Of a stretch of 64,000 nucleotides of DNA, positions 3,246 through 63,487 are shown piece by piece. The translations under genes and the position numbers were made by a program. Below the pieces are notes generated by a model. The model had not been told where the DNA came from, did not search any database, and saw nothing but the letters and a program-made list of their open reading frames with translations. Origin of the DNA: an uncultured Clostridia bacterium (GTDB lineage Bacteria > Bacillota > Clostridia > TANB77 > CAG-508); the NCBI GenBank assembly GCA_947625685.1, contig CANQPK010000001.1, positions 36,535-100,534 of the forward strand, in the 5' to 3' direction. Each line of letters begins with the position of its first letter. The first letter of the stretch is position 1.

Positions 3246-3608
3246 TTATATATTATCTAGTCCTCCTTCAAGCATATATAAATCTGTGTAACCTTTTTGT
3301 CTTAGAATTTCATAAGCCTTTTTGCTTCTTATTCCTACTTGACAATAAAGAATTATAGTATCATCTTTATTTTTTAGAATCTTTTCTGCTTTTTTATTAA
3401 GATCATATAATGGGATATTTATCGCAGAATTTAATCTATTTTCCATAAATTCTTGTGGACTCCTTACATCAACTAATTTAATGCATGGGTTGATTTTTAT
3501 CATTTCTTTAGCAGTATCATAACTTATTTCTCTATCTTCTTCAACTAATCTTGTTTTAGTTGTCCTTAACTTTTTTATTATTTTATTTAATATATATTCT
3601 AATCTCAT
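3246..3608 (-). CDS. rhodanese-like domain protein (single-domain sulfurtransferase)
   Basis: 120 aa. Active-site loop YCQVGIRS, where the Cys is the rhodanese catalytic residue. Confidence 0.7.
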   Translation of the reverse strand: MRLEYILNKIIKKLRTTKTRLVEEDREISYDTAKEMIKINPCIKLVDVRSPQEFMENRLNSAINIPLYDLNKKAEKILKNKDDTIILYCQVGIRSKKAYEILRQKGYTDLYMLEGGLDNI

Positions 3609-3794
3609 TTTGTCATCCTTCTTTACTATTATATTACAATATATGACATATTTTTTAATTTGTTCTTATTAATTATTAAATCCATTACTGTTGTTACAGT
3701 TTTATTACTGTAATATTACAATTGTTTTTCAAAAGTGTTACTATCTATAGTTTTATGTAAAACATTTTTGTAATATCAGGTTTACATTTGCTAG

Positions 3795-3837
3795 TTATCC
3801 ACTCAAAAAAATAAAATGTGGATAACTTTGTGAATAA
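3795..3837. promoter_or_regulatory. cluster of three DnaA-box-like 9-mers (TTATCCACt, TTATCCACA on minus, TTATTCACA on minus)
   Basis: TTATCCACT at 3795-3803, TGTGGATAA at 3817-3825 and TGTGAATAA at 3829-3837. The first two form an inverted repeat. Confidence 0.45.
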
Positions 3838-4053
3838 GTATTTATCAAACTTTTTTGACTAAACTTATTTTTGGTTTGCAATAATTTTTTTATTATGTGA
3901 ATTTTTTATTTTATTTTTCAATTCATTATGTGTATTGTTCGTTTGTTCGTAAAAAATAGAGGAAATCTGCTCTCCTCTATACTTTGTCAGTTTAATTAAA
4001 AAGACAATAATATTTATTTAAAAAATACGCGTCCCAGCAACCAAATTGTCTTT

Positions 4054-5134: not shown

Positions 5135-8100
5135 CTAAAACATACTATCAAAAAGGCTCATTTGGTTGGTTTCACTCATCCCCTCAAGACATCCAAATTT
5201 CTCTAAAAGTGCTATTGTCGCATCTCCTACTTTTGCACGTTTTTTTATATCTTGTTTAGAAATGAATTCTCCGCTTTTCTCTAGCACTAGCAATACCAAT
5301 AGCTGCAACTTCTCCCATACCAGCAATACTACTTAGTGGCGGACGAATGCTTCCGGTTTTCTACTTTAAATTTGGTTGCATCAGACTTATATAAATCTAT
5401 TGGCAAGAAATTAAAACCTCTTTCATACATCTCAAGAACAGATTCCAAAATAGAATACATATTCTTATCTTTTGCAGTTGCATCATTTCCAAGTTTTTTT
5501 ATATCTGCCATTTTTTCTCTTACTTTGCTTTTTCCAAAAATCATAACTTCACTATCAAATTCATCTGCTCTTATTGAAAAGAATGTTGCATAATATGCAA
5601 GTGGTTTATGCACTTTAAACCAAGCAATACGAAATGCCATAGTTACATACGCAACAGCATGTGCTTTTGGGAACATATATTTTATCTTCTTGCAGGATTC
5701 AATATACCATTCAGGTACATTATTTTCCCTCATAAGAGTTTCTTGTTCCTCTGTTAATCCTTTGCCTTTACGAACGCATTCCATTATTTTAAATGAATTT
5801 TGAGCAGGAAGTCCCATACTTATTAAATATGTCATAATATCATCTCTAGTACATATTGCTTCTGCTAGAGTTGCTTTTCCTTCTTTAATTAAATCTTGAG
5901 CATTATTATTCCAAACATCAGTACCATGTGAAAGTCCAGATATTCTAACTAATTCTTCAAAAGTTTTTGGCAATGTTTCAACAAGCATATCTCTAACAAA
6001 TCTTGTTCCAAATTCAGGCACTCCAAAAGTTCCTACCTTTGAATCTATTTGTTCAGGAGTTACTCCTAATGCCTCCGTTGAAGAAAATATAGACATTGTT
6101 TCTTTATCATCAAGTGGAATACTTTTTGGCTCTATTCCAGTTATATCTTGAAGCATCCTTATAACTGTTGGATCATCATGTCCTAACATATCAAATTTAA
6201 GTAAGTTTTTATCTATTGAGTGATAATCAAAATGTGTTGTAATTATATCTGAGTCTGGGTCATCTGCCGGATGCTGTACAGGACAAAATTCATATATTTC
6301 ATGTCCTTTTGGAACAACTACGACTCCTCCTGGATGTTGTCCGCGTTGTTCTTTTTACACCAGTACATCCTTCTGCTAATCTATCAATTTCTGCTGAACT
6401 TACTCTTATATTTCTTTCTTCAAAATAATTTTTCACATATCCAAAAGCAGTTTTTTCTGCAATTGTTCCTATTGTTCCTGCTTTAAATGTTGTTCCCTTT
6501 CCTAAAATTTCTTCTGCATATTTATGTGCTTTTAGTTGGTATTCCCCTGAAAAATTTAGGTCTATATCTGGTTCTTTATCCCCATTAAATCCTAAAAATG
6601 TTTCAAATGGAATATCCACCCCGTCTTTTATAAGTTTTGTTGCACATTTAGGACATAATTTATCAGGAAGGTCAAATCCATTCTTAACTCCATAATCAGA
6701 AAAATCCGAATACTTGCAATTAGGACATCTATAATGTGGTTTTAGAGCATTTACTTCAGTTATTCCTGTCATATAAGCCGCAAGTGATGAACCTACAGAT
6801 CCTCTTGATCCAACCAAATAGCCATCTTCATTAGATTTAGCAACAAGTTTCTGTGCTATTATGTACATAACTGAAAATCCATTTTTTATAATCGAGTCTA
6901 ATTCTTTTCTTAATCTTGTTTCCACAATTTCTGGAAGAGGATCTCCGTATAATTCTTTTGCTCTATTCATAGCTATATCTTCTATTGTTTTTTCACAGCC
7001 TTCAATGTATGGTGGACATTTTTCTTTAGATATTGGACTAATTGCTTCACACATATCTGAAATCAGATTTGTATTAGTCACTACTACTTCATAAGCTTTT
7101 TCTTTTCCAAGATATGAGAATTCTTCTAGCATTTCCTCAGTTGTTCTTAAGTAAAGAGGCGCTTGAAAATCAGCATCATCATATTTCTGACCTGCCATTA
7201 ATATTCTTCTATATATTTCATCCTCTGGATCTAAGAAATGTACATCACAAGTTGCAACTACTGGTTTATTTAATTTTTCACCTAACTGCACTATTTTTCT
7301 ATTTATCTCTATTAAACCATCATTGTTTTCAATGCTTCCATTTCTAATTAAGTATTCATTATTTCCTAAAGGTTGAATTTCCAAATAATCATAAAAAGAT
7401 GCTATCTCTTCTATTTTATTTTCCGGTAATCCTTCTAAAATTGCCTGATATAATTCTCCTCTATCACATGCACTTCCTATCATTAATCCTTCACTATATT
7501 TTTTGTATAGGCTTCTAGGTATCTTAGGTTTTTTATAAAAATAATCTAAGTGTGAAAAAGAAATAAGCTTATATAAGTTTTTAAGTCCAACATAGTTTTT
7601 AGTTAATATAACCGCATGATATGTTGGAAGTTGTTTTAAGTTAATATCTTCTTTAAAAATATTATCTATTTCACTTAAATTTTTAACGCCTTTTTCTTTC
7701 AAATTTCTAAGCATGACTTCAAAAACTTTAACTAATGTTTTTACATCATCCAAAGCTCTATGTGCAACATCTACTCTTATTCCTAAATTTTCAGCAATTA
7801 ACCCTAATTTATGTCTTTTATATTCAGGAAACATTTCTCTTGCAATAGCTAAAGTGTCAATATATGTATTATTAAGTGTTAAGTCTTGAAGCTCTGCAAA
7901 ATGTCTTATAAATCCAATATCAAAATTTGCATTATGTGCAACTAATACACTATCTCCTGCAAATTCTAAAAATTTTGGTAAAACTTTATCTATTGTTTCA
8001 GCATTTCTTACCATATCATCAGTAATATGAGTAACTTTTATTACATCATAAGGTATTGGCTTTTCTGGATTTACAAAGCATTCAAATGTATCTATAATCT

Positions 8101-10180: not shown

Positions 10181-10780
10181 CTACTCTAATATATAATCAT
10201 CCTTTGGATTCTTATAAACTTCTTCAATTATTTTTTTTATTTCTTCATATCTTTTTGTTACCGCAACCGGACAACTTTTTTCTATGTATTTTTTATCGTC
10301 TTTTAGAAATGCTTCTCTTATTTTTGTAGATGACACTCCTTCAAACATGTCTTTTCTTTTGAATAATCTAAAATTTATTCTTTGCATTAATTCTTCATCA
10401 AACCAATCTTTTATTATTTCTGAATCATCTGAAAAATAAATTGAGAAATGTTTTTGTCCTACTCTTGATACAACATTATAGTATAAATATCTTCCCCATT
10501 CTTTATTTGATTTAGTATCTGTTTCCATGCTCCAATCAGGAAGTTCCACAATTATTATTCTTTCATTGTATGCTTGTCCATATTTTTCTATAACAGTTTC
10601 TTCTAACATCATCTTTCTTAAATTTATATCTAATGGATTTCTTAGAGTTTCTTTTTTATTTGCACTACCAATTAATATTATAACTTTATCATTTTCTTTT
10701 AAAATTGTATCTATTATACCTAAATGCCCTATGTGCAATGGTTGCATTCTGGACAAAAATACTCCAATTTTTTGTTTCAT
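10181..10780 (-). CDS. nicotinamide-nucleotide adenylyltransferase-like cytidylyltransferase (NadM-type)
   Basis: Nucleotidyltransferase motif FLSRMQPLHIGH (HxGH). Confidence 0.6.
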   Translation of the reverse strand: MKQKIGVFLSRMQPLHIGHLGIIDTILKENDKVIILIGSANKKETLRNPLDINLRKMMLEETVIEKYGQAYNERIIIVELPDWSMETDTKSNKEWGRYLYYNVVSRVGQKHFSIYFSDDSEIIKDWFDEELMQRINFRLFKRKDMFEGVSSTKIREAFLKDDKKYIEKSCPVAVTKRYEEIKKIIEEVYKNPKDDYILE

Positions 10781-39854: not shown

Positions 39855-41712
39855 TTATTGATTGATATATTTTAGTATTCCTCCTGCTTCATTTTCATAA
39901 ACAATTTCAGCATTTTCTGTTAAAACATCCTTATAGTAATTATAGAAATACCCACGATTAAAATATATCATATAGTCTACTTTTCCTGCTCTTTTTCCAA
40001 CATACATCATCTTTATACTTAACTTTCTTTCTCCGACTATATTTTGGTTCATCATTATTAATCCTTTGTAGTATTGAATAAGCCCAATAACCTTGTTCTG
40101 GATTACCAGCCACTTCAATTAATCTATCCTCTGATATATTTTCTTTTGCATATTTTAAGATTTCTATTTCTTCTTTTGTCAAATCTTTTGGACTTTCTAG
40201 AAGTATTTTTTTATTTGCTACATAAATATCAGTCACTTGTAATGCATTTTCTTTTATATTTTTTATTTCATCTGTTATCTCCGTATTTCCAAATAATAAT
40301 GTAATAATTAAAATTACTATATATGCTACAATACATATACTTGGTATATATCTACTCTTTTCATATGTGATAAGCAATCCCTTATATGTTAAGTAAAATA
40401 AGAATAATGATAATGCAAAATAGTTTTTACTTAAATAATAGTCTGATACTTTATCAAATTTATTACCTATAAAAAGTAAAATTATAAATAAAATATTAAA
40501 AATTGTCATTAATGCAACTGCCTTATTTTCTTTCCAATTTTTCCATATAGCTATTATTGAATAAGGCAATAGTAAAATCATGTTAGAGAATAAATTTATA
40601 TATATGTATCCTTCAACTGCAAATTTTTCATTTATTAAATTATCTGAATTTTTAAATAAATTTGATAGGTCTATGGTCCTTGATATTATTATTCCATATA
40701 TACTATATTCAATATTATATATATATCCTAATGCAAAAGGTAATAATAATGTAACGAATAAAATAACAAATGTTTTTTTAGTGAATAATTTATTTTGCCT
40801 TTTATATTCTTCATAGCAAAAATAAATCCATAGAGCACTATATACATAAGGTACAAACATATAGTAAGCATTAAATAATCCAAAATTTAATAAGAAAAAT
40901 ACCAGTAGATTATGTTTGTATGTAATTTCTTTTTTACGATAGATATCTACGCTAGCAATAATTGCTTCTAGTATTAAAATTCCCATACTGAAATATTCAA
41001 ATCCAAACAAGAAACTATTTAATGGATATCCCATAGTATACAATAATGAAACAATAAATGCTAAAAATCTTATTTTGTTATTTTTTGCAAATCCTGCAAG
41101 TGTGCTATAAAACATGTATGCAGTTAAAAATAATACAAAAATTGCAAATCCTATGAATATGTTGTAATTATAGAATGAACTAGTTTCATTACCTGAACAG
41201 ATTTTCATAATAAGTCCAGAATTTACATATGACAATATTTTTTTGGTGCGTAAAGATACTCCATATACATCATCTGGATGAGACATCATAAGTAGTCCAT
41301 TTCCATCTGCAAATTTTTCTGATGTTAAATAATGCACAGATGGATCTCCTGTTTCATATTTAATTTCAAATGGAAAGCCAAAATTTATATATGCTACAAG
41401 TAGGCAAGCAATTCCTAATATAGCAATATACAATATATCTATCTTTTGAATTTTATAGCTTTGTATTTTTTTAGTTTTTATAATATAAATTGATAATATC
41501 ACTATAAAAACTAAATTTATAATACTTAAAATTAGTAAAGTAATTGGAATAGTGAAAAATGTTAATACATAACATATAAATGCATTATAGCAAAAAAGTA
41601 ATATAAATCCTAACGCAATTTGCTTTAATATATCTATTTTTTCTTCTGTTTTTCTTATCAATAGATAATTGATAAACAGTATAATTAGTGTTATACAATA
41701 AATAATACCCAT
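39855..41712 (-). CDS. large polytopic (~14 TM) membrane protein with an extracytoplasmic C-terminal domain, possibly a YfhO/GT-C-like glycosyltransferase; one +1 break
   Basis: ORFs 39958..41712 and 39855..40118 overlap. Deleting the C at agtCggaga (plus 40032-40035) joins them into a ~618-aa protein. Confidence 0.5.
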
Positions 41713-41960
41713 TTTATTATCTCTCTTACTTTATTTATTTTTTCAATTTTAGTGATTTCTTTCTTATAATATAACATATCTTATATAAAATATCAATTTG
41801 AAATTTCATTTATAAATATTCAGATTCATTATAATTTGCTTCAAATTCATGCATTAAATTTTTATGACTTATCTATTTTTATTTTATAGATTAATATTCA
41901 ATTAACTATTACTATTAAAATATAGCTATAACTAATATGTATTCTATCCCAATGGTTTTA

Positions 41961-44596
41961 TTATTCTGTAACTTCCACTACTTTTAGTGTAACATCTTTA
42001 TAGGTAACCTCACCAGCTTCATTCAAATATGGGGCATGAACTACTTCAGTCTTTTCGGCAGATAGTTTACCTGTTACAAACTGTTCTAGTCCCTTTAGAG
42101 GTGAATCCAAAGCAGCAAATTTTCCTTTAGAAATAACTGCTGAAGCTGTACCTGACACTGAATATAAACTTATTATAGGAAGATTGTTATTGCAACAACT
42201 TATCATTCCTGTAGTATTGACGGACAACGTTCCATTTTCCCCGATGTCCATACTGGTGCTATTGGTATTCCATGCATAGAGTGATGAATTATCGGAGAAA
42301 TCCATATGTCCATATACGCCCACATTGCAACATAACACACTGTCCCCCTGGATACTCAATAAAGAACCCGGTTGGACAGACGCGCCGTGGCTACTCATAG
42401 GATTGCTCGTACCTAAGAAACTTTTACCTAGCACCGTGACGTTAGCCGTGTGGTTAGTAATACCGACAATCTAGTACCCTGTCAACCCCGTAAATGTGAG
42501 TATCTAAGATTTGAACTGGAGTCGAAGTCTCAATATGTAGTGGAACATCTATATTTGACTTGAATGTCGATCTTTCTACCTTCAAACTACTCGTATCCAT
42601 CATTTTTATACCATAGGCCTTCCCAGTGTTTTCAAGATTGGAATCATATATTTCCACATTGTAATTTCCGTCACAGTGTAATGCACTACCTTTTCCCGCA
42701 ATTACTTTTGCATTTTGTAGTTTTAATGTTCCATCTCCTCCTTTAATACTTATTGCTGTATTTTTTGTTGATATACTTGCACCTGTAATACTTACATTTG
42801 CTGAGTGTCCTTCATCATTTTGATAGATGTTTATTCCAACCATTCCATCAATTGTAACACCTTTGTTTATAGTTAATTGTCCCGGACTACGCCATGATAT
42901 AACCCCATTGTCATTCGTTGTCTCTTCTACATTTCTTAGTAATGTTTCTCCATTTATTGTTAATGTCTGCCTATTATCTTCATACTTATCACTAACGATA
43001 CAATTTTTGTTTGATTTAGCATATATTTTTGAGTTTGTAATCGTTGCATTTCCCATTCCTTGCAAGCGAAGTGCTCCGCATACTAGATACATTAATTGTT
43101 GAGTCAGTTATAGTAAGATTTGAAGTGTAACCATGTTGCAAAATAACAGCGTGGCCTGCTGTTTGAATATTTACTGCTCCTTCTATGTTTATATTTCCTC
43201 CATACGCAGTCATAAACCACTTTGCTGCTTCAGATACTATGTTTCCTGGACCTTTTATTGTAAATGTTCCACTATTTATAAGTATAAGTCCGTTGCGGTC
43301 CTCAGAATTTTGAAAATTTTCTGTTGCTTCTATTTTTAATGTTTTGTTATTTGTATCTATCTGTATTGTTTTTGCTATTTCAAATGATGTTGCAAATACT
43401 TCTGTTACATCTTTTTCTAATACTATAGTTCCTCCTCCAAATTCTCCTCCTTTATCTATCGCGTCTTTATATGCTTCAGAAAGTTTTTCATAATATATTT
43501 TTTTGCCATTATTACTTATACTGTAATTTGCTTTTGCTAGAACAATTTTTATATTATCTACTTCACTTTCATTTCCTGCTTTATCTACTGCTTTTACTAT
43601 TATTGTATATTCATTATTTTCGTTTAAGGCTGTAAATGTACAGTCTGCTGATGCTTGTTCTGTTTTATTGGCTATTACAGCCTTTTCCTGTGGTTCTCCT
43701 TCTCCTTGTAATGCAAATATTATCTTTGCTACTCCACTTTCTTCTTCTGGTTTGTCTGTTGGTGCTATTCCATCTTTTGCTATAGCTTTTACTGTTATAC
43801 TATTTGTTGTTGTCTCTGTTATTTGTGAAGTTGGTTGATCTGGTGCTACTGTGTCTATTATATTTATTTTCTTTGTTGCTGTTTTTAATATTTCTCCTAT
43901 ATTATTTTTTACTCTTACAATTATTACTCCATTTGCTGTTATATCTATCTTGCTTCCTTTTATATAGTTTGTCCATCCTGTTTGTGCTTTTGGATCTTTG
44001 GTATATTCTACAATTAGTCCTGATAAATCTTCTTCTGATACATCATTTACTGTTATTGTTGCATGTATTGGTATTTCATGTGTCCACTCATTTTTGTCTA
44101 GTTCTATAATTATACTTCCTTCTTTTATATCTGGTAATGGTTTAAATCCTTCTCCTTCTCCTACTTTTCCTACATTTTTGACATCTTTTTCAGTTACATA
44201 AAATACATATCCTTCCTTTGTTACTACCCTTAATTTTTCTTCTCCTTCTCCTGTATCTCCTATTATCTCTGCTGATCTCATACCTTTGAATTGTTCTGAT
44301 TCTTCTACTCTCTTTTTAAATTCTTCTAGGTATGCTCTACCTTTCAAATCATCAAATATTTGTTTCTCTGCTAATACTGCTCCTATTTCTACTAGCCCTT
44401 CTCTATATTCTGCTATCCTCATATTTTCTGCTGCCTCTTGTGTCATTTGAAATAATCCATGGTCTCCTATTACTGCTCTTATTCCTATTGACGCTAGTAT
44501 TATTAGTATTATTATTGTTATTATTAGTGCTATTAGTGTTATTCCTTTTTCTTTTATTGTGCCTATATTATCTTTTCTCTCTTCTTTTTTACTCAT
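41961..44596 (-). CDS. locus-1 large secreted protein (~875 aa): prepilin-like N-terminus (KG-ITLIALIITIIILIILA), FN3/Ig-like repeats, parallel beta-helix-like region and a Cys-rich, GC-rich C-terminal domain; two +1 breaks
   Basis: Three track ORFs (43016..44596, 42454..43092, 41961..42434) join when the C is removed at atgCggagc (plus 43075-43078) and tgtCggtat (plus 42462-42465). The N-terminus resembles a class III/type IV prepilin leader but has Ala at +5. It is a paralogue of 60665..62611. Confidence 0.6.
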
Positions 44597-44619
44597 TTCT
44601 TTTTTCTCCTTCTTGAGTT

Positions 44620-45084
44620 TTATTTACTTAATTTGAAGTCATATGCATTTGCATAGTCTAATGCTGTACTTACATTTAATTCTGTACTCTCTCCTGGCTT
44701 TAATCCTTCTATATATGCTGGTATTGTTGTTATCTCTTTTCCTGTATTATCTATTAGCGTTATATTGAATACTGCTGTTTGTACTGCACTAGTTGTATTT
44801 TTTACTGTTCCTAATAACACTGTGTCATTTTCTCTTTCTGTTAATTGTAAGTCACTTATTTCTAATCCATCTAACATTTTTGTCTTATGTAGCTGTTCAC
44901 TTGTGTTTAATTTTGTTTCATCATCTAAGACATCTACAAATTCTTCTACTGGTGTATTTGTTTCATTCCCTCCTGATTGGTTTTCATTTTCTCCTTTGTT
45001 TCTTGCTAGTAGGGTTATTCCTCCTATTATTAATACTGCGACAATAATTAATATTATTATTTTTTTTCTCTCTGAATCTTTCAT
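44620..45084 (-). CDS. locus-1 small N-anchored membrane protein (paralogue family A1/A2/B2)
   Basis: 154 aa. One N-terminal TM, then a ~120-aa domain with the conserved LDGLEISDLQL ... TVLLGTVKNTT ... ITLIDNTGKEITTIPAYIEGLKPGEST. Paralogous to 62650..63180 and 60079..60633. Confidence 0.6.
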   Translation of the reverse strand: MKDSERKKIIILIIVAVLIIGGITLLARNKGENENQSGGNETNTPVEEFVDVLDDETKLNTSEQLHKTKMLDGLEISDLQLTERENDTVLLGTVKNTTSAVQTAVFNITLIDNTGKEITTIPAYIEGLKPGESTELNVSTALDYANAYDFKLSK

Positions 45085-45123
45085 TTGCCTTCTTTTCCCT
45101 TCTTTTTTATATATAACAAAAAA

Positions 45124-45166
45124 GACACGCCAAACCTACACTAAAAAGTATAAGTACTGTGTGTCC
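45124..45166 (-). terminator. leader hairpin + U-tract (attenuator-like) upstream of the locus-1 structural genes
   Basis: On the minus-strand RNA, GGACACACAGUACUUAUACU...AGUGUAGGUUUGGCGUGUC pairs with several G-U wobbles, followed by UUUUUUGUUAUAU. Homologous to 63227-63273. Confidence 0.55.
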
Positions 45167-45184
45167 TTATATTACTTTTTTCTT

Positions 45185-45238
45185 TTAATATACCTGTGTG
45201 TATATATATAGAGCCTCTAAGGTTCTAGCTTTTGTCAT
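45185..45238 (-). CDS. leader peptide ORF (MTKARTLEALYIYTQVY) of locus 1
   Basis: RBS AGGAGAAC 8 nt upstream of ATG at 45238-45236. The first 10 codons are conserved with the locus-2 leader (MREARTLEAL). The stop lies 18 nt before the hairpin. Confidence 0.5.
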   Translation of the reverse strand: MTKARTLEALYIYTQVY

Positions 45239-45283
45239 CTTTTGTTCTCCTTTAAATTTCTATTTTTTTCTTGATTTTATTTT

Positions 45284-45312
45284 ATTATAATGCGTTTTTT
45301 TACTTCGTTCAA
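45284..45312 (-). promoter_or_regulatory. sigmaA promoter of locus 1 (TTGAAC-17-TATAAT)
   Basis: Minus -35 at plus 45307-45312 and -10 at plus 45284-45289, downstream of the lysS terminator. Confidence 0.5.
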
Positions 45313-45465
45313 TAGGGGTAATTAATTTGTAATATAAATGTAATATTTATGAAATATTTTAAAACAGAGTCCTTCTTGACATTTTTGGAATATAATTCGT
45401 GTTCATTTAATAAATCATCTAACTTTGAAAGTTTTATTTTTTACTTCCTTTTTTATTTGTTAGAG

Positions 45466-45502
45466 GCAAAAAAAGAGCTGATTAATTTTTTAATCAACTC
45501 TT
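45466..45502 (-). terminator. rho-independent terminator of lysS
   Basis: AAGAGCTGATTAA-ttttt-TAATCAACTCTT (one mismatch) followed by a T7 run on the minus strand. Confidence 0.75.
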
Positions 45503-45736
45503 AACTGTTAGATATTATTTCAATAATTGCATTTAATTTTATAATGCTATTTTTTTGGATGCTTTAAAATCAATTAGAATCTATTGATCTTTTTACTGCT
45601 ATTTTACGGCTACTAGAAAAATTTATTAAAATTCATTAAAATTTTATCTTTTTATATATTATTTTTTAAAGAGCTACACTTCTTAATTTTACTGGTTTTT
45701 AGACTTATTAAAACTTTTTAAGATTTTTAAAAAGTT

Positions 45737-47230
45737 CTATCCCAATGGTTTCATAGTTGGGAATAGCAATACATCTCTTATTGATACTGAATCTGTAAGA
45801 AGCATTACTAATCTATCTATTCCTATTCCAAGTCCTCCAGTTGGTGGAAGTCCTATTTCTAGTGCATTTACATAGTCTTCATCCATCATTCCAGCTTCTT
45901 CATCTCCATTTTCTCTTGCAGCAATTTCTTCTTTAAATCTTTCATATTGGTCAATTGGATCATTTAATTCTGAAAATGCATTTCCATATTCTCTTCCACA
46001 AATAAATGCTTCAAATCTTTCTACAAGTCTTGGATCTTCTTTTTTCTTTTTAGCAAGTGGAGATATTTCTATTGGATAATCATATACAAATGTTGGTTGT
46101 ATTAAAGTTTTTTCTACATATTCATCAAAGAACAAGCTTATTATATGTCCTCTTGTCTCTTTACCATTTGGGATTTCAATATTCTTTTCTTTTGCTAAAG
46201 CTATTGCTTCTGCATCAGTATTTATTTGATTAAAATCAATTCCACAAGCCTCTTTTATACTGTCTATCATTGTAACTCTTTTCCATTTTGTACCAAGATC
46301 AATTTCAGTTCCTTGATAAGTTACTTTTGTTGTTCCACAAACTCTTTCAGCACATCTTTTAAACAATTCTTCTGTTATGTCCATCATATCATTGTAATCT
46401 TCAAAAGCCGAATATAGCTCTATTGATGTGAATTCAGGATTATGTCTTATATCCATTCCTTCGTTTCTGAATATTCTGCCTATTTCATATACTTTATCAT
46501 ATCCACCTACTATAAGTCTCTTTAGGTTCAACTCTGTTGCAATCCTCAAATACATGTCTAAGTCTAAAGTATTATGATGTGTTATAAATGGTCTAGCAGT
46601 AGCTCCTCCTGATATAGTATTAAGTATAGGTGTTTCTACTTCTAGATATCCTTTCTCATCTAAAACTTTTCTTATTTCACTTATTATCTGACTTCTTTTT
46701 ATGAAGGTATCTTTTACTTCTGGATTTACTATTAAGTCTACATATCTTTGTCTATATCTTAAGTCTGTATCTTTTAATCCATGGAATTTCTCTGGAAGTG
46801 GTCTCAAAGATTTAGAAAGAAGGATTATTTCCTTTGCATGTACTGAAATTTCTTCTGTCCTTGTTTTAAATACAAATCCAGTTATTCCTATTATATCTCC
46901 TACATCATAAGTCTTAAACTCTTTGTAGTTTTCTTCACCTAGATCATTAGTGCTAACATAGCTTTGAATTTTTCCTTGACTATCTTGTATTGTGCAAAAA
47001 GATGCTTTCCCCATAATTCTTTTTGACATTATTCTTCCTGCAACTGATACATCTTTTCCTTCTAATTCATCATAATTATCTTTAACTTCCTTGCTTGTAT
47101 GTGTTCTATTATATTTAGTTATTTCAAATGGATTTTTTCCATTATTAGTAAGTTCTTGTAATTTTTCCCTTCTTATTTGCATTAAGTGGTTTACATCTTG
47201 TTCCATTTCATTGTTTTCATTTTCGTTCAT
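45737..47230 (-). CDS. lysS: lysine--tRNA ligase (class II)
   Basis: 497 aa. N-terminal OB fold, class II motifs ([20 protein letters not shown]) and C-terminal ...FPTMKPLG. Confidence 0.95.
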
Positions 47231-47377: not shown

Positions 47378-47788
47378 TTAAAATATATTTTTTAGTGCAA
47401 CTTTATATTTATCTTTTATATGTGATACCATAAAGCTACAACTATCTAATGATTGAATTGCAATATTAAATTCATCTGTTTCTACATTACTATTCATCTC
47501 GTAAAGATATAATTCTACCTTTTCTAATTCGGTATGTTCAATGTAATACGCAAGTTTATCCTTTTTTTCTTTCCATTTTTCAATTACATTGTCAACACTA
47601 TCTTCTAAATTTTCATTATTATTTGAAACTAATTGTCCTCTAATTTTATTTAAATCTGATGTCATTTCTTCCATAACTTCATTAGTATAATTTGATGTAA
47701 TAATATTCAAAATAATAATTAAAATAATAATGATACATGCTATTATTATTTCTCTTTTCATTTTTCTGCCTTTCCTTTCTTTTGGCAA
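47378..47788 (-). CDS. hypothetical N-anchored small protein
   Basis: 136 aa, one N-terminal TM, coiled-coil-like remainder. Confidence 0.4.
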   Translation of the reverse strand: MPKERKGRKMKREIIIACIIIILIIILNIITSNYTNEVMEEMTSDLNKIRGQLVSNNNENLEDSVDNVIEKWKEKKDKLAYYIEHTELEKVELYLYEMNSNVETDEFNIAIQSLDSCSFMVSHIKDKYKVALKNIF

Positions 47789-48451
47789 AAAATTTGTTCT
47801 TTGCCATCAAAAGTTACAATTAATGCTTGCTCTGGCGATATTCCAAATTTTGAAACTTCCTTTTTTAGCCAATTATAATCTTTTCCTATCCTTTTTAAAT
47901 TATCTTCCATTATGCTTCCGTCAATTACTAAGTCATATGGGATTCCTTCATATTCTGGCTCAATTCCAAAATCCTCCGGTATACTATTTCTTTTACTTGG
48001 TTTAGGAATTACTGTCAGTCCTCCGACTTGTTTCAAGTATTGCATATTCTACATCTCCCAAAGAAGTTATATTGTTTCCTCTTAATCTTTCTTCTAATTC
48101 GCTCAGAGTAAATCTTTCTCTTCTTAAAGCATCTTCGTTTATTTTTCCTCTATATATTAGAATTCGTGGTTTTCCACATATTATTTCTCTTGCTCGTATA
48201 CTTTTCATATTTAATACAGAAATAAAAAGGTGCATAACTAAAAGTCCAAGAATTGGAATTATTCCATTTTCTATTGGAATTCCAATTTCTGACATTGGTA
48301 TTGATGCTAAATCTGCAATCAGTATTGCAATTACAAGTTCAAATGGCTGTAGTTGTCCAATCTCTCTTTTTCCCATCAATCTCATTACTATTAGTATCAA
48401 TATATATAGCACAATTGATCTTAAAAATGTAATTAGCATAAAAACCTCCAT
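47758..48451 (-). CDS. DUF421 (YetF/YdfR-like) membrane protein; one +1 break
   Basis: MRLMGKREIGQLQPFELVIAILIADLA is the DUF421 signature. Deleting the C at agtCggagg (plus 48022-48025) joins ORF 48002..48451 to ORF 47758..48045. Confidence 0.65.
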
Positions 48452-49051: not shown

Positions 49052-49935
49052 TTATAATATAACATCTCTTTTTAGTTTTTCTTCTTTTATTTCTCCAGTT
49101 CCTATAAATGCATTATCTTCGTTATATATTTTATATATCCCATTTTGTAAATTAGTTTTTAGTTTTACTCCATTTAAAAATAATTCTATCTTTTTGTTAT
49201 TCAATATTATAGATTGTTTATCTTTAAATATATCCTCTACTGAAATTATATGCTCTTTTAAGAATTCTAAATTATCAATATTTTCTTGTAATTTGCTTAA
49301 TTTTACAGTTTGTTTTATATCAAATTCTCCGAACCTTTAACCTATTTAGTTCACTTATACATCCTACAGTGCCAAGTGATTTTGCTATATCTCTTGCAAG
49401 TGATCTTATATATGTTCCTTTTGAGCAACTAATAATTATATCAATTGTATTTTGTTCAATATTAATTTTGTTAATCTTTATATCATATATTTCTATTTGT
49501 CTTGGTGTTACTTCTATTTTCTTACCTTGTCTTGCATATTCATATAATTTCTTACCATTTACTTTTATTGCAGAATAAATTGGTGGTTGTTGTTCTTGCT
49601 TACCTATAAAGTTTTTAATGACTTTTTCTATATTTTGCATTTTTAAGATAGATTTATCTATATCTTCATCTTTTATAATATTCCCAGATATATCTAATGT
49701 ATCTGTTTCAATTCCGAGTTTTATTTTTGCTTCATATATTTTATCATGATTTATAAGGTATTTAGATATTTTGGTAGCTTTTCCGTATAAGTAATGGAAG
49801 AACGCCAGTTGCCAAAGGGTCTAGCGTTCCTGTATGACCAACCTTTTCATTCAAGATTTTCTTTACCTTACTCACTATATCATGTGATGTATATCCTTTT
49901 TCTTTATCAATAATTAAAATTCCATTCATATTATT
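49052..49935 (-). CDS. truB: tRNA pseudouridine(55) synthase; two +1 breaks
   Basis: The N-terminus [19 protein letters not shown]...[24 protein letters not shown] is recovered after deleting the C at ataCggaaa (plus 49782-49785). The middle ORF 49320..49640 follows. The C-terminal PUA-like part is recovered after deleting the C at gttCggaga (plus 49328-49331). Confidence 0.8.
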
Positions 49936-60078: not shown

Positions 60079-60633
60079 TTAATTCAATAACTGTCTAGTT
60101 ATTTGTATTTTGGTTGCTTTAGTTAAATCTTGTATATCACTTGTTTTAAGTTTTGTACTTTCTCCTGGTTTTAATACTGGTATATATGCTGGTAATTTTG
60201 TAATTATTTTTCCATTCGCATTTATTAACCCTACATCTAGAATAATTCCTCCTTGTTCTTCTTGGGTCTTATTTGTTACATTTCCTACTATATCTGTCAA
60301 TCCATTTTTATAATTTAAATCTATTCCGCTTATTTCCATTCCTTCTATTGTTTTCGTATCTAATACTTTTCCATCTGAACTAATCATAAATTCATTTGTT
60401 TTTTCTTTATTAATTGTGTTTTCGTTATTATCTTTATTTTCTTCTGGATTTTTTATATTATTTGAATCACTTGCTAAAGTATTTAATTCAACATTGTTAC
60501 CTTGTGTATTTTCTTCACCTTGAGCAAGTAATGTTTCTTTTTCATTATTTATACCTAAAATATTTAATGCAACTATTATAACTATTCCAACCACTATTAA
60601 TATTATTATTCCTTTTTTCTCCGAATCTCTCAT
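60079..60633 (-). CDS. locus-2 small N-anchored membrane protein B2 (paralogue of A1/A2)
   Basis: 184 aa. N-terminal TM and the conserved C-terminal domain (GMEISGIDL ... GKIITKLPAYIPVLKPGEST). Confidence 0.6.
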   Translation of the reverse strand: MRDSEKKGIIILIVVGIVIIVALNILGINNEKETLLAQGEENTQGNNVELNTLASDSNNIKNPEENKDNNENTINKEKTNEFMISSDGKVLDTKTIEGMEISGIDLNYKNGLTDIVGNVTNKTQEEQGGIILDVGLINANGKIITKLPAYIPVLKPGESTKLKTSDIQDLTKATKIQITRQLLN

Positions 60634-60664
60634 TTTACTCTCCCTTCTTTAGTTTAATCCTATA

Positions 60665-62611
60665 TTAATCATGTGCTACACCGCCATAGTTGTGCGCGCA
60701 GTAATAGTGACCATTGTAGTAACCATGACCACAGTTGTAACGACCATATGAGTGAGCAGAAGTTCTACCATGTTCGCATGTCTCCGTAACTGTATGAGGA
60801 GATGTGTTTCCGTGTGAACATGGACTTGTTGTAGTCACAGTATGCGCACTCATGTTACCATGTATGCAAGGTGAGTCTATTGTATGTGAACTAGAGTATC
60901 CATGTGGGCAGGTTTTGTCGTAGAAACCGTCATTGTTGTGGTCAGGACCAGGGCAGTGATCAACACGTCCTCCAGAGCATTGGGTAGTGGTAGTTGTACC
61001 ACCAGGACAAGTGTAAGAACTTCCTCCACTGCACCACTCAGAACCTCCCCCACTACAGTACTTCGTCGTTCCTGTACATTGTGTTTTTGCTTTGTTATCT
61101 CTTTTAGTTGCTGTATGATTTACTGTGTCTGTTACTTCTACATGATATGTATAATCTGTGTAATTAGATAATCCTGTTACTTCTAAATCTATATTTTTTC
61201 CTTGTGCTTGATTCTCTAGTGTCCTTTTTGGTGTTTTTTCAGCATCTATATATACCTTGTATGTTAGTTTTCCTTGGTCTGCTGCATCTGGATCTGTTGC
61301 ATTTACTCTTATTGTAAGTGTTGTTGGTGTTTTGCTTGCAACCGATACACTGTTTATTACTGGTGCTACATTTGCAAGTGGTAATACTGCATCTGCATTT
61401 GCACTTTTTCTTAGGTTTTCTGCTTTGTCTACTGCTTCTACATATACTTTGTGTGTCATTCCATCTTTTTGGTTTGTTGCGTTATATGTTGCACTTGTTG
61501 ATTTGCCTAATACTAATTTTCCATCTATATAATAATTATAATATGCTATTCCTGATTCGTTATCTTTTGCTGAACTTGCATCTATTGTAAATGATGTTGG
61601 TTGTATATTTTTTATTACTGGTGTAAATTCAATTGGTTTATCCAAATCTACTATTGTCACTGTTGCAGTGTTTCCTGAATAGTTATATCCATCTGTTAAT
61701 CGTGCTTTTACTGTATATCCTAATTGTAAATTGTCTATTACCTGTCCATTTTCTATTGTTATGTCTTTTCTTCCATTTACTATACTTCCTTTTTCGTCAT
61801 ATACATCATATTTTACTGTATAGTTATCTTGACTTGTCTTTTTTATTACTACACTTGCTATTCCATTCTTCCATGTTGTATTCTCAAAGTCTAATTCTCC
61901 CTCTCCATATTCTATTACTTTTGTTCTTGCTTCTGCATATTTTTCACTTGTTCCGTTTTTATTTGTTGCTTCTACTTTTATTGTGTATATTTTATCTTGA
62001 TCTAGTCCATCTATTGTATAGCTTAAATTTTCTGTTCCTGTTATTGCCTCTTTATATTCTCCTGCTTCTCCTATTGCTCCTTCTTTATAGTAGTATGCAT
62101 ATGTTGCTCCTTCTCCTCTTTTTACTGTTATGTCTGCTTTTATACTTCTTGTTGTTGCTGTTAATTGTAGTTTTACTATTTTTACTGTTAAGTCTTCTGC
62201 TTTTCCTTCTACTTCTACATGGTCTACTTTGCTCTTATCTTCTTCTGTTGGTACTACTCTTGCTACCCATCCATCTGGTGTTACTACTTCTTTACTTCCA
62301 TCTTCATTTTCTACTGTTTCATTTGGATCTATTACGTCTTTCTTCTCTAATTCTTCAATGTATTCATCCATTGTTGGTTCTCTTCCCTCTTGTCCCGCCT
62401 CTGCTGTTACTGTAGCTTGAGGTATTACAAATCTTTCTTCTACTTCTCCTACTTGATATGAATCTGCTGCTCCCTTTGCTAGATCTAATAAGTTACCTGA
62501 TCTTAATGTACCTATTGTTACTATTGATAATATAATTAGTATTATTATTGTAATTATCAAGGCTACTAATGTTATTCCTCTTTCTTTTTTCATATCTTCC
62601 TTTCCTTTCAT
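60665..62611 (-). CDS. locus-2 large secreted protein (648 aa): prepilin-like N-terminus (RG-ITLVALIITIIILIILS), FN3-like repeats and a C-terminal Cys/His-rich tandem-repeat domain
   Basis: Paralogue of 41961..44596; the N-terminal TM region is nearly identical. The C-terminal ~140 aa contain about 6 degenerate C-x-H-G-x(3-5)-H-T repeats (CPHGYSSSHTIDSP, CIHGNMSAHTVTTTSP, CSHGNTSPHTVTET ...). GC is elevated, which I estimate by eye as at least 40%, over 60665-61100. Confidence 0.6.
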   Translation of the reverse strand: MKGKEDMKKERGITLVALIITIIILIILSIVTIGTLRSGNLLDLAKGAADSYQVGEVEERFVIPQATVTAEAGQEGREPTMDEYIEELEKKDVIDPNETVENEDGSKEVVTPDGWVARVVPTEEDKSKVDHVEVEGKAEDLTVKIVKLQLTATTRSIKADITVKRGEGATYAYYYKEGAIGEAGEYKEAITGTENLSYTIDGLDQDKIYTIKVEATNKNGTSEKYAEARTKVIEYGEGELDFENTTWKNGIASVVIKKTSQDNYTVKYDVYDEKGSIVNGRKDITIENGQVIDNLQLGYTVKARLTDGYNYSGNTATVTIVDLDKPIEFTPVIKNIQPTSFTIDASSAKDNESGIAYYNYYIDGKLVLGKSTSATYNATNQKDGMTHKVYVEAVDKAENLRKSANADAVLPLANVAPVINSVSVASKTPTTLTIRVNATDPDAADQGKLTYKVYIDAEKTPKRTLENQAQGKNIDLEVTGLSNYTDYTYHVEVTDTVNHTATKRDNKAKTQCTGTTKYCSGGGSEWCSGGSSYTCPGGTTTTTQCSGGRVDHCPGPDHNNDGFYDKTCPHGYSSSHTIDSPCIHGNMSAHTVTTTSPCSHGNTSPHTVTETCEHGRTSAHSYGRYNCGHGYYNGHYYCAHNYGGVAHD

Positions 62612-62649
62612 TTTTTTATTTTTACTTTGTTTTTTATTCTTGCTTTTCT

Positions 62650-63180
62650 TTACTTGAAGTTACTTATCCTTATGTCATATGCATTTGATACATCTCCTGA
62701 TATTGATACGTTTAATTTTACTTTCTTTCCTATTTCTATTGGGTCTATGAATCCCATTGCACTTGTTATTACTTTTCCTTCTTTATCTAATATTTCTACT
62801 TTTATTTTTTTCTCTGTTGTTCTTCTTGTTGTTTTGTTTTCTACTTCTGCTAATAATGTTGTCATTTTTCCTTTTTCTTTTTCTTTTAATTGTATGTTGC
62901 TTATTTCTAGTCCATCTAATGTTTTTGTTTTTGCTACTTCATCACTTATATTTAATTTGCTACCATCCTCTAATACTTGTACATATTCTTCTATTTCTTC
63001 TTTTGGATCTGTTGTTGTTTGATTTTGTCCTTTTCCTATTTCATTTCCTCCTGTTTGTCCTGAAGCTATTTGCTCATTTTGTGATTTTGCAGCTACTTTT
63101 ACAAATATGTTTAGTCCGACTATGATTGCTATTCCTACTACTAATAGTATCAATATGTTTCTTTTCTCTTTCCCTGTCAT
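62650..63180 (-). CDS. locus-2 small N-anchored membrane protein A2
   Basis: 176 aa. TM, then KTLDGLEISNIQL ... TTLLAEVENKTT ... VITSAMGFIDPIEIGKKVKL. Same family as 44620..45084. Confidence 0.6.
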   Translation of the reverse strand: MTGKEKRNILILLVVGIAIIVGLNIFVKVAAKSQNEQIASGQTGGNEIGKGQNQTTTDPKEEIEEYVQVLEDGSKLNISDEVAKTKTLDGLEISNIQLKEKEKGKMTTLLAEVENKTTRRTTEKKIKVEILDKEGKVITSAMGFIDPIEIGKKVKLNVSISGDVSNAYDIRISNFK

Positions 63181-63226
63181 TCGTTTTCCTTCCTTTCCTT
63201 TCCTTTTTTTATTTTATATAACAAAA

Positions 63227-63250
63227 GGGCACACAAAACTTATACTTTAA

Positions 63251-63273
<23 letters not shown>
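63227..63273 (-). terminator. leader hairpin + U-tract (attenuator-like) of locus 2
   Basis: On the minus RNA, GGACACACAGGACUUAUACUU-aauua-AAGUAUAAGUUUUGUGUGCCC is followed by UUUUGUUAUAUAAAAU. It sits between the leader ORF and the A2 RBS. Confidence 0.55.
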
Positions 63274-63364
<91 letters not shown>

Positions 63365-63412
63365 CTTTCGTTCTCCTCCAAAATTCACATTTTAACTTAT
63401 GTGTTTAATTTT

Positions 63413-63441
63413 ATTGTAGGATATTTTTCGTTAATAGTCAA
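63413..63441 (-). promoter_or_regulatory. sigmaA promoter of locus 2 (TTGACT-17-TACAAT)
   Basis: Minus -35 at plus 63436-63441 and -10 at plus 63413-63418. Confidence 0.55.
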
Positions 63442-63487
63442 CAAAAGTTGCTAATTTGTAACATAAATTTAATAGTATTGTAATATT

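Follow-up and report, generated by a model that had tools for sequence, protein, structure and literature searches.

A 3.8 kb islet at the 3' end of lysS in an uncultured gut Clostridia bacterium: a probable decayed remnant of a site-specifically inserted mobile element

We describe a block of 3.8 kb (positions 41942-45751) which adjoins lysS, the gene for lysyl-tRNA synthetase, in a 64,000-nucleotide stretch of contig CANQPK010000001.1 from an uncultured Clostridia bacterium. This whole stretch of 64 kb is called the window below, and all of the genes of the region lie on its - strand. The block is bracketed by a perfect 17-bp direct repeat that duplicates the end of lysS, and it carries a two-gene surface-protein cassette. 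In our view it is probably the scar left at lysS when a mobile element inserted site-specifically: an integrase-less, mosaic and decayed remnant of the kind described as cis-mobilizable elements (CIMEs) or decayed integrative conjugative elements (ICEs; decayed forms, dICEs). The evidence consists of the repeat itself, the absence of the block from the closest species found, the kinship of one arm of the block with a transferred element that begins at the same place in other genomes, and the presence of small islets at the same position in further species. Taken more widely, the lysS 3' end is a recurrent integration hot spot in this uncultured gut Clostridia clade.

The repeat pair at the ends of the block

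In the 64-kb window there are exactly two copies of the 17-mer TTCTATCCCAATGGTTT, one at 41942-41958 and the other at 45735-45751; a tolerance of up to two mismatches adds none. On the - strand both copies read AAACCATTGGGATAGAA. Copy A (45735-45751, -) is the attL-like core and comprises the final 15 nt of lysS and a further 2 nt; its reverse complement, AAA CCA TTG GGA TAG AA, gives K P L G stop in the lysS open reading frame (ORF), the last codons of the gene (KPLG*) falling within the repeat. Copy B (41942-41958, -), the attR-like core, begins 2 nt past the TAA codon (41961-41963) that closes the final fragment of the large cassette gene. When the repeat is lengthened to 20 nt (45735-45754 for copy A and 41942-41961 for copy B), 19 of the 20 bases agree, as TTCTATCCCAATGGTTT[T/C]AT. 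A preliminary description of this DNA, made from its letters alone, had reported a perfect 17-bp direct repeat duplicating the lysS 3' end and bracketing the locus, and had proposed that further copies of the 17-mer be sought; both coordinates are exact, and the count in the window is two.

The same description had argued from the number of possible 17-mers (4^17) that a chance recurrence was very unlikely. That estimate is too optimistic for DNA as AT-rich as this (25-30% G+C): the real window contains about 15 pairs of exact direct repeats of at least 17 nt, and some repeated 17-mer is present in 96% of first-order Markov simulations of it. The judgement that the repeat is non-random nevertheless stands. 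A repeated 17-mer with at least seven G/C, as here, appears in only 5% of the simulations; TTCTATCCCAATGGTTT itself reached two or more matches in none of 100 shuffles; the copies mark the ends of two genes; and four further species show a duplication of these lysS bases. Given the placement and the comparative data, a chance origin of the repeat is untenable.

Absence of the block from the closest species

For comparison, one genome per species was scanned with LysS, which gave a set of 80 loci, all from uncultured gut Clostridia; loci and contigs are cited by our L numbers. The closest species found is L005, a metagenome-assembled genome from rabbit gut with a LysS that is 96% identical. In this genome lysS is followed by about 230 nt and then by the homologue of the membrane-protein gene which lies beyond the islet in the window (39958-41712); the block is absent, and the L005 locus holds no homologue of either the small or the large cassette gene. 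The order further downstream is that of the window, with genes for a dockerin/SH3 protein, a cadherin-like protein and an LPXTG protein, and sortase genes. The preliminary description had suggested looking in related genomes for an empty site joining lysS to the membrane-protein gene, and L005 provides such a junction without the block, although it is not a clean empty site, as discussed below.

Kinship of the left arm with a transferred ParA/ParB element

The ~340 nt that follow lysS in the window (45734 to ~45400) are 69-72% identical to the DNA after lysS in L018, L024 and L072 (214-360 nt aligned, with E values of 1e-20 to 1e-24). In L072 (complete chromosome OZ006978.1) this DNA leads into genes for a 205-aa protein, ParA, ParB, a 1418-aa LPXTG adhesin of SpaA fold and TnpV, a gene content that resembles that of an integrative conjugative or mobilisable element. 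When L072 is compared with L018 and L024, identity is 59-85% inside lysS and 92-99% from the stop codon on, and this jump therefore marks a horizontal-transfer boundary at the lysS 3' end. Genes for ParA and ParB also lie just after lysS in L083 (Anaerotignum, LysS 67% identical).

The window retains the hairpin of this element together with a degenerate ribosome-binding site and first codons of the L072-type 205-aa first gene (~45391-45470, -, by alignment), the blastn match to L072 reaching ~45439. The hairpin (45473-45502, -) is terminator-like, now ends the lysS transcript, and has homologues in the arm hairpin of L072 and L024 and in the one that follows the lysS-end remnant in L008. Between it and the repeat lies an element arm or mini-element remnant (45504-45734, -), which holds TTTTAATAAATT at 45620-45631 and a tandem TAGCCGTAAAA/TAGCAGTAAAA pair at 45591-45612. 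The motif block TTTTAATAAATT...GTAGCNGTAAAATAGC is invariant in six loci: in L006, L008 and L034 it occupies the right arm of an islet, and in the window, L072 and L024 the left arm. Each of the arm motifs occurs once in the window, in the left arm only.

At an equal distance past the motif block, the small islets have their attR core and the window, L072 and L024 have AAATG[C/T]A[A/G]TTATTGAAATAATATCTAACA followed by the hairpin. The latter sequence, which in the window stands at ~45504-45533 (-) in the same register as the attR core of L006, L008 and L034, is plausibly a degenerate internal core, a possible third copy of the lysS end. The pattern is the one expected after a mini-element and a larger element have accreted in tandem, a course of events that is likely rather than demonstrated; tandem accretion is an existing model for integrated elements (PMC5704250). 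A possible link to an ICE or mobilisable element of the same specificity would lie in the left arm, which is ~70% identical to the element start in L072, L018 and L024; the right arm has no shared module.

Small islets at lysS in other species

At least four other species carry small islets at lysS in which the motif scan described below detected no recombinase. In L044 the second copy of the lysS end lies 751 bp from the lysS stop, as a 16-bp repeat (CAATGAAACCATTAAA), and the cargo is a ferritin/Dps gene. The corresponding distance in L034 is 2.1 kb, with a 20-bp repeat (CAATGAAACCTCTTAATAAT) and several small ORFs as cargo, and in L006 it is 649 bp, with a 13-bp repeat (CAATGAAACCACT) and a gene for a 167-aa protein. 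The second copy in L008, 1.7 kb from the lysS stop, is imperfect, consisting of the remnant ATGAAACCATTAAATTAGAACATT followed by a hairpin, and the cargo comprises a 290-aa and a 167-aa gene. The islet repeats in these four loci begin at the lysS bases CAATGAAACC or ATGAAACC, and across loci the start points of the lysS-end repeats all fall within 5 nt of one another. The displaced copy in L006 encodes MKPLG*, ending as the lysS of the window does.

Other features of these loci were noted in passing. The 167-aa gene has no match in Pfam or NCBIfam and recurs in the lysS-end islets of several species: it lies at 11522-12025 in L006 and within 11489-13055 in L008, where the 290-aa gene precedes it, and only remnants of it are found in L005 (6060-6230) and L050 (11552-11680). 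The C-termini of LysS in loci L004-L083 are of several types (KPLN*, KPLG/A*, KPLSDRQ*/KPLSDH*, KPLNNA* and KPLNEK*), with C-termini lengthened by more than 30 aa in L009, L025, L028, L048, L049, L062, L071 and L076, and the contigs of L004, L011, L013 and L018 stop less than 400 nt past lysS. Those of L004, L011 and L013 break off as little as 30-70 nt past the gene, and the arm that they show is the same. The type of LysS C-terminus (KPLN*, KPLG/A*, KPLSDRQ* or KPLNNA*, for example) and the contig ends after lysS may mark different inserted elements.

Search for a recombinase and for phage or plasmid origin

The only ORFs of the block are the 154-aa gene and three fragments of the large gene; none is a recombinase, and neither the ORF list, Pfam, NCBIfam nor a motif scan gives a recombinase, relaxase or type IV secretion match within it. 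The motif scan applied regular expressions to ORFs of at least 150 aa, which divergent enzymes may escape. It found no ORF resembling a tyrosine or serine recombinase anywhere in the window, nor, at any locus, in the first 10 kb downstream of lysS, its two matches, an XerC/D-like fragment in L039 and a serine recombinase in L052, both lying upstream of lysS. The absence of an integrase from the block, which the preliminary description had stated, is therefore borne out by ORFs, Pfam and motif scan alike. Published lysS ICEs have an integrase next to the attachment site and a conjugation module; the same scan found neither in the block, the window or the 10 kb downstream.

A prophage or plasmid origin was considered and rejected, the block having no blastn match in 50,697 phage or 72,556 plasmid records. 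A search of viral contigs with the core and two arm motifs gave nothing relevant, and a search of plasmids with the L072 element gave similarity to ParA only. Metagenome contigs of the JGI were scanned for the 17-mer; no locus like that of the window is among the matches listed, and we take those matches to be chance hits because none of their loci resembles the window.

The right junction

To the right of copy B, 81 nt are 80% identical to L008 16366-16446 (blastn, E = 9e-14). The matched part of L008 consists of the last codons of a 950-aa surface-protein gene, that is, the anchor after LPKTG, and in the window it corresponds to a pseudogene remnant at 41860-41939 (-) which encodes a membrane anchor of this kind. 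The presence of this stump of an LPXTG-protein gene directly after copy B implies that a deletion removed the DNA which once followed the displaced lysS end. Copy B itself matches the lysS variant of its own genome, with GGA (Gly) where relatives have GCA or GCG.

Two contigs, L223 and L224, share the same large-gene 3' end at ~80% nucleotide identity, followed by TAATAAAAC-ATTGTAGATAAT. This sequence looks like a decayed version of the core, here in a different downstream context. The link between the gene end and the core seems to be older than the species, because in L223 and L224 too this gene end is followed by the decayed core. The C-terminal module of the large gene has homologues, all found on contigs of only 1.3-2.5 kb.

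The surface-protein cassette

The cassette begins with a promoter and leader (45085-45358, -) which are 70-80% identical to the upstream regions of paralogous cassettes at window 63181-63487 and in L084. A promoter scan places a promoter-like -35/-10 pair at 45312-45284. With the terminator-like hairpin at 45502-45473, which is likewise inside the block, this agrees with the earlier proposal that the block has its own promoter and contributes the terminator of lysS. The small gene (44620-45084, -) encodes a 154-aa protein with an N-terminal membrane segment and an FxLYD domain (NCBIfam FxLYD_dom, 25.4 bits against a cut-off of 23). The protein has 113 homologues, mostly of ~150-160 aa, and two paralogues in the window (62650-63180 and 60079-60633).

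The large gene (41961-44596, -) would encode ~877 aa if repaired, but is broken by two frameshifts into three fragments in three frames (43016-44596, 42454-43092 and 41961-42434). Its product matches the Pfam family Beta_helix (right-handed beta-helix, E = 1e-7) and, weakly, Big and fn3 families of Ig-like domains; the N-terminus is hydrophobic and pilin-like, a resemblance that neither Pfam nor NCBIfam confirms. The frameshifts are identical in three independent metagenome assemblies, and because both recur in this way we regard the gene as dead. Among its homologues only the N-terminal ~38% is common, and the C-termini differ. The 3' part of the gene (window 42000-42600) has 41-43% G+C compared with 18-32% in its surroundings, which suggests a foreign origin of this 3' module; homologous modules in L223 and L225 look still richer in G+C.

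Identity with the upstream DNA of the second window copy and of L084, at 70-80%, sets in at ~45358. This match, with the multi-copy nature of the cassette, shows the islet to be a mosaic in which an element-arm remnant meets a cassette at ~45391-45358. The second copy in the window (60079-63180, -) also has the small gene followed by the large one. Elsewhere, the copy in L084 lies between clpB and addB; that in L221 adjoins ABC-transporter genes, with a 97% identical small-gene copy (P0036) on a separate contig of 600 nt; the first 1020 nt of the copy in L219 are 93% identical to the window cassette; and in related species copies follow rplQ (L086 and L087). A cassette with a conserved large-protein N-terminus of ~340 aa and interchangeable C-terminal domains thus occurs in at least 4-5 copies per genome at unrelated sites, and its 5' parts are 93-97% identical, with the result that assemblies break there. 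This arrangement suggests that the C-terminal modules of the large proteins are shuffled by recombination.

The leader contains an 18-codon ORF (45185-45238, MTKARTLEAL...), a TA/CA dinucleotide run and a hairpin (45122-45167) followed by a T-run; the predicted RNA fold has an energy of -32.3 kcal/mol (z = -3.2). The same plan is found in the leaders at window 45085-45358 (-) and 63181-63487 (-) and at L084 7217-7510, each with a short ORF of the form M-R/T-E/K-ARTLEAL.... The dinucleotide runs are a CA run of ~33 nt at ~63303-63335, (CA)4 in L084 and TATATATACACACA in the copy beside lysS. From these features, the leader may be an attenuator subject to phase variation through repeat length. 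It matches no Rfam family, the lone match being a sub-threshold small RNA that falls on the terminator. The L084 cassette between clpB and addB is itself bracketed by a 13-bp direct repeat, CCTTTCTAAATAA, at 7128-7140 and 10326-10338, with its second copy 13 nt past the large-gene stop; this geometry resembles that at lysS, and chance is possible.

Origin of the islet

The absence of the block from L005, the homology of the left arm and the islets at the same site in other species all support the proposal of the preliminary description that this is a site-specifically inserted islet. We picture the following course of events. A mobile element would have integrated site-specifically into the lysS 3' end, leaving 17-bp cores of attL/attR type; LysS stays intact because such integration duplicates the gene end. 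On the - strand, what remains would then be lysS and core A, a ~230-nt element arm with its conserved motif and a possible degenerate internal core, the hairpin that ends lysS, ~80 nt left from the now dead beginning of the element's first gene, the surface-protein cassette, core B, the stump of a deleted LPXTG-protein gene and finally the membrane-protein gene. Excision of the islet would be expected to yield an attB of the form ...CTATGAAACCATTGGGATAGAATACATATTAG... and a circular attP of the form ...ACAGAATAATAAAACCATTGGGATAGAACTTTTTAAAAATC.... We infer the order of the insertion, deletion and accretion events, as well as the route of the cassette to its place between the cores and whatever excisability the islet retains. 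By analogy with known lysS elements, the recombinase would be of the tyrosine type. The wording of the preliminary description, "a remnant or mobilised in trans", matches the published definition of CIMEs and decayed ICEs (PMC5704250), and the two frameshifts, together with the dead first gene of the element, show that decay has taken place.

Several observations weigh against this interpretation. In L005, lysS ends KPLSDRQ* and the spacer after it holds the wreck of a different islet, namely the 167-aa gene of which L006 and L008 have intact copies. Core B is followed by a gene stump instead of the native downstream region of lysS, so that extra deletion events must be assumed, and the right arm beside it lacks the module of L006, L008 and L034, the stop of the large gene being only 2 nt away. 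The perfect identity of the two cores is puzzling beside the decayed version in L223 and L224, unless the event was recent or gene conversion has occurred. Look-ups of the exact LysS and membrane-protein sequences returned only three ENA samples, all of which contain the islet with the same frameshifts; with three of three samples in the integrated form, there is no strain polymorphism, empty form or excision product among them. Loci were read to 10 kb, and within that distance no integrase is seen for the family of L072-type elements; the assignment to the tyrosine-recombinase class rests on analogy because the far end of the L072 element lies past the 10 kb covered. Lastly, the cassette belongs to a resident multi-copy family and is not obviously the cargo of an element, because paralogues 93-97% identical to it are found elsewhere.

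The foremost alternative is that the islet belongs to a still-functional family of non-autonomous mini-islets with conserved arms, moved at lysS by the integrase of an ICE elsewhere. Such a family would account for cores that are perfect while the cargo decays, for an arm motif kept in six loci of different species, and for the existence of at least five islets of 0.65-3.8 kb which carry varied cargo at the same lysS position and no recombinase by motif scan; the co-transfer of CIMEs with ICEs has moreover been documented in streptococci (PMC5704250). The islets could equally be independent deletion derivatives, however. The right arm in the window has no module, with a gene stop 2 nt from the core, no integrase was found by motif scan in the 64-kb window or at any locus, and the three samples show no empty or circular form. 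We consider a functional islet unlikely. A related proposal is that the lysS 3' end acts as a cassette-exchange site, at which mini-islets with the ~110-nt arm module TTTTAATAAATT...GTAGCNGTAAAATAGC, and with a ferritin/Dps gene, uncharacterised genes and surface proteins among their cargo, are shuffled in trans by the integrase of a conjugative ParA/ParB element and sometimes stack in tandem; this too we hold to be unlikely.

The cassette could instead have come by homologous recombination or gene conversion between paralogous cassettes, or with a chromosomal segment transferred from a relative; copy B would then be no end of this islet but a hitch-hiker, the relic of an older and unrelated event. 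The near-identity of its 5' parts with paralogues elsewhere, where assemblies break, would fit such an origin, as would the modular large genes with their common N-terminus and swapped C-termini, the G+C content of the large-gene 3' part relative to its flanks, and the C-terminal module and decayed core shared by L223 and L224 in a different context. Yet copy B equals the GGA variant of its own lysS and not the GCA or GCG of relatives, the DNA between the repeats is precisely what L005 lacks, and a site-specific event would still be needed to make the duplicate, all of which renders this origin very improbable. A chance repeat or a transposon target-site duplication, to which the abundance of exact repeats in the window might lend colour, is scarcely credible, the block having no transposase ORF and no terminal inverted repeats joining its ends, and 17 bp exceeding the usual length of such duplications. 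For the same want of an inverted repeat and a transposase, transposition was rejected as the source of the block.

Comparison with known elements at lysS

The 3' end of lysS is the target of streptococcal ICEs with site-specific tyrosine integrases, and the direct repeat of one such element consists of the final 17 bp of the gene (Ambroset et al. 2016, PMC4701971). The islet uses the same gene end, and the repeats are alike (17 bp in the one case and 15 bp plus 2 in the other), a comparison made by description only. The streptococcal ICEs carry an integrase and, if intact, a conjugation module of the ICESt3 type, whereas the islet has neither.

Genomic islands of the VanD type in enterococci and gut anaerobes also target the lysS 3' end, with a 13-bp repeat, TTCCC[g/a/c]AC[a/g]ATGA, at a distance of 17 bp from the gene end (PMC8301612, PMC10765050, PMC8725431). 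These islands (Tn6711-Tn6713 and ICEVREfm_vanD, from Enterococcus and gut Eubacteriales) share with the islet the integration at the lysS end and a circulation among gut anaerobes. Their repeat matches TTCCCAACTATGA of the window, immediately 5' of copy A, save at one variable position; the repeat of the window starts where theirs stops, with an overlap of 1-4 nt, and runs to the gene end. The islands measure 112-200 kb and contain an integrase, unlike the 3.8-kb block.

The closest parallel is with the CIMEs related to ICESt1 and ICESt3 in Streptococcus thermophilus (PMC5704250). Like these, the islet is flanked by attL/attR-type repeats that include the 3' end of a housekeeping gene, lacks genes for integration and transfer, has one arm related to a larger element at the same site, and shows signs of tandem accretion (the possible degenerate internal core) and of deletion. 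It differs in its target, lysS of uncultured gut Clostridia, in its unconserved right arm and in its cargo, a resident multi-copy cassette. By its structure, with the lysS-end repeat and no integration or transfer genes, the islet would be classed as a CIME, and we regard it as a well-supported yet unsurprising example of a CIME or decayed ICE.

The comparison extends a published ICE hot spot to an uncultured, low-G+C lineage of gut Clostridia, in which it is also heavily used. A strain- or species-specific surface-protein locus is, on the interpretation favoured here, explained as mobile-element wreckage. If the mini-islets prove to be mobilisable in trans, the site would provide a compact natural model in which to study the spread of islands that lack an integrase.

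Flanking genes and other frameshifts

The target gene lysS (45737-47230, -) encodes 497 aa and is identified by its Pfam tRNA-synt_2 match (E = 6e-93) and an anticodon-binding OB domain. On the other side, the first conserved gene past the islet (39958-41712, -), which directly follows lysS in L005, encodes a multi-pass membrane protein of 584 aa with no match in Pfam or NCBIfam. Taken as 39855-41712 (-), this gene has a trailing out-of-frame fragment.

Two further genes upstream of lysS appear to be split. A DUF421 gene (window 47758-48451, -) reads as two overlapping ORFs (149 and 95 aa) because of a frameshift, and the same split recurs in L005, the sister species (3359-4049), and in the three assemblies from ENA; in L007 (8786-9442) both parts are in one frame and the gene is probably intact. 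Either a pseudogene has been inherited here or the frameshift in the DUF421 gene is a conserved one. Similarly, truB (window 49320-49929, -) appears as ORFs of 106 and 55 aa in different frames. The splits in truB and in the membrane-protein gene are also called in independent low-coverage assemblies, and the genome seems to be rich in frameshifted genes.

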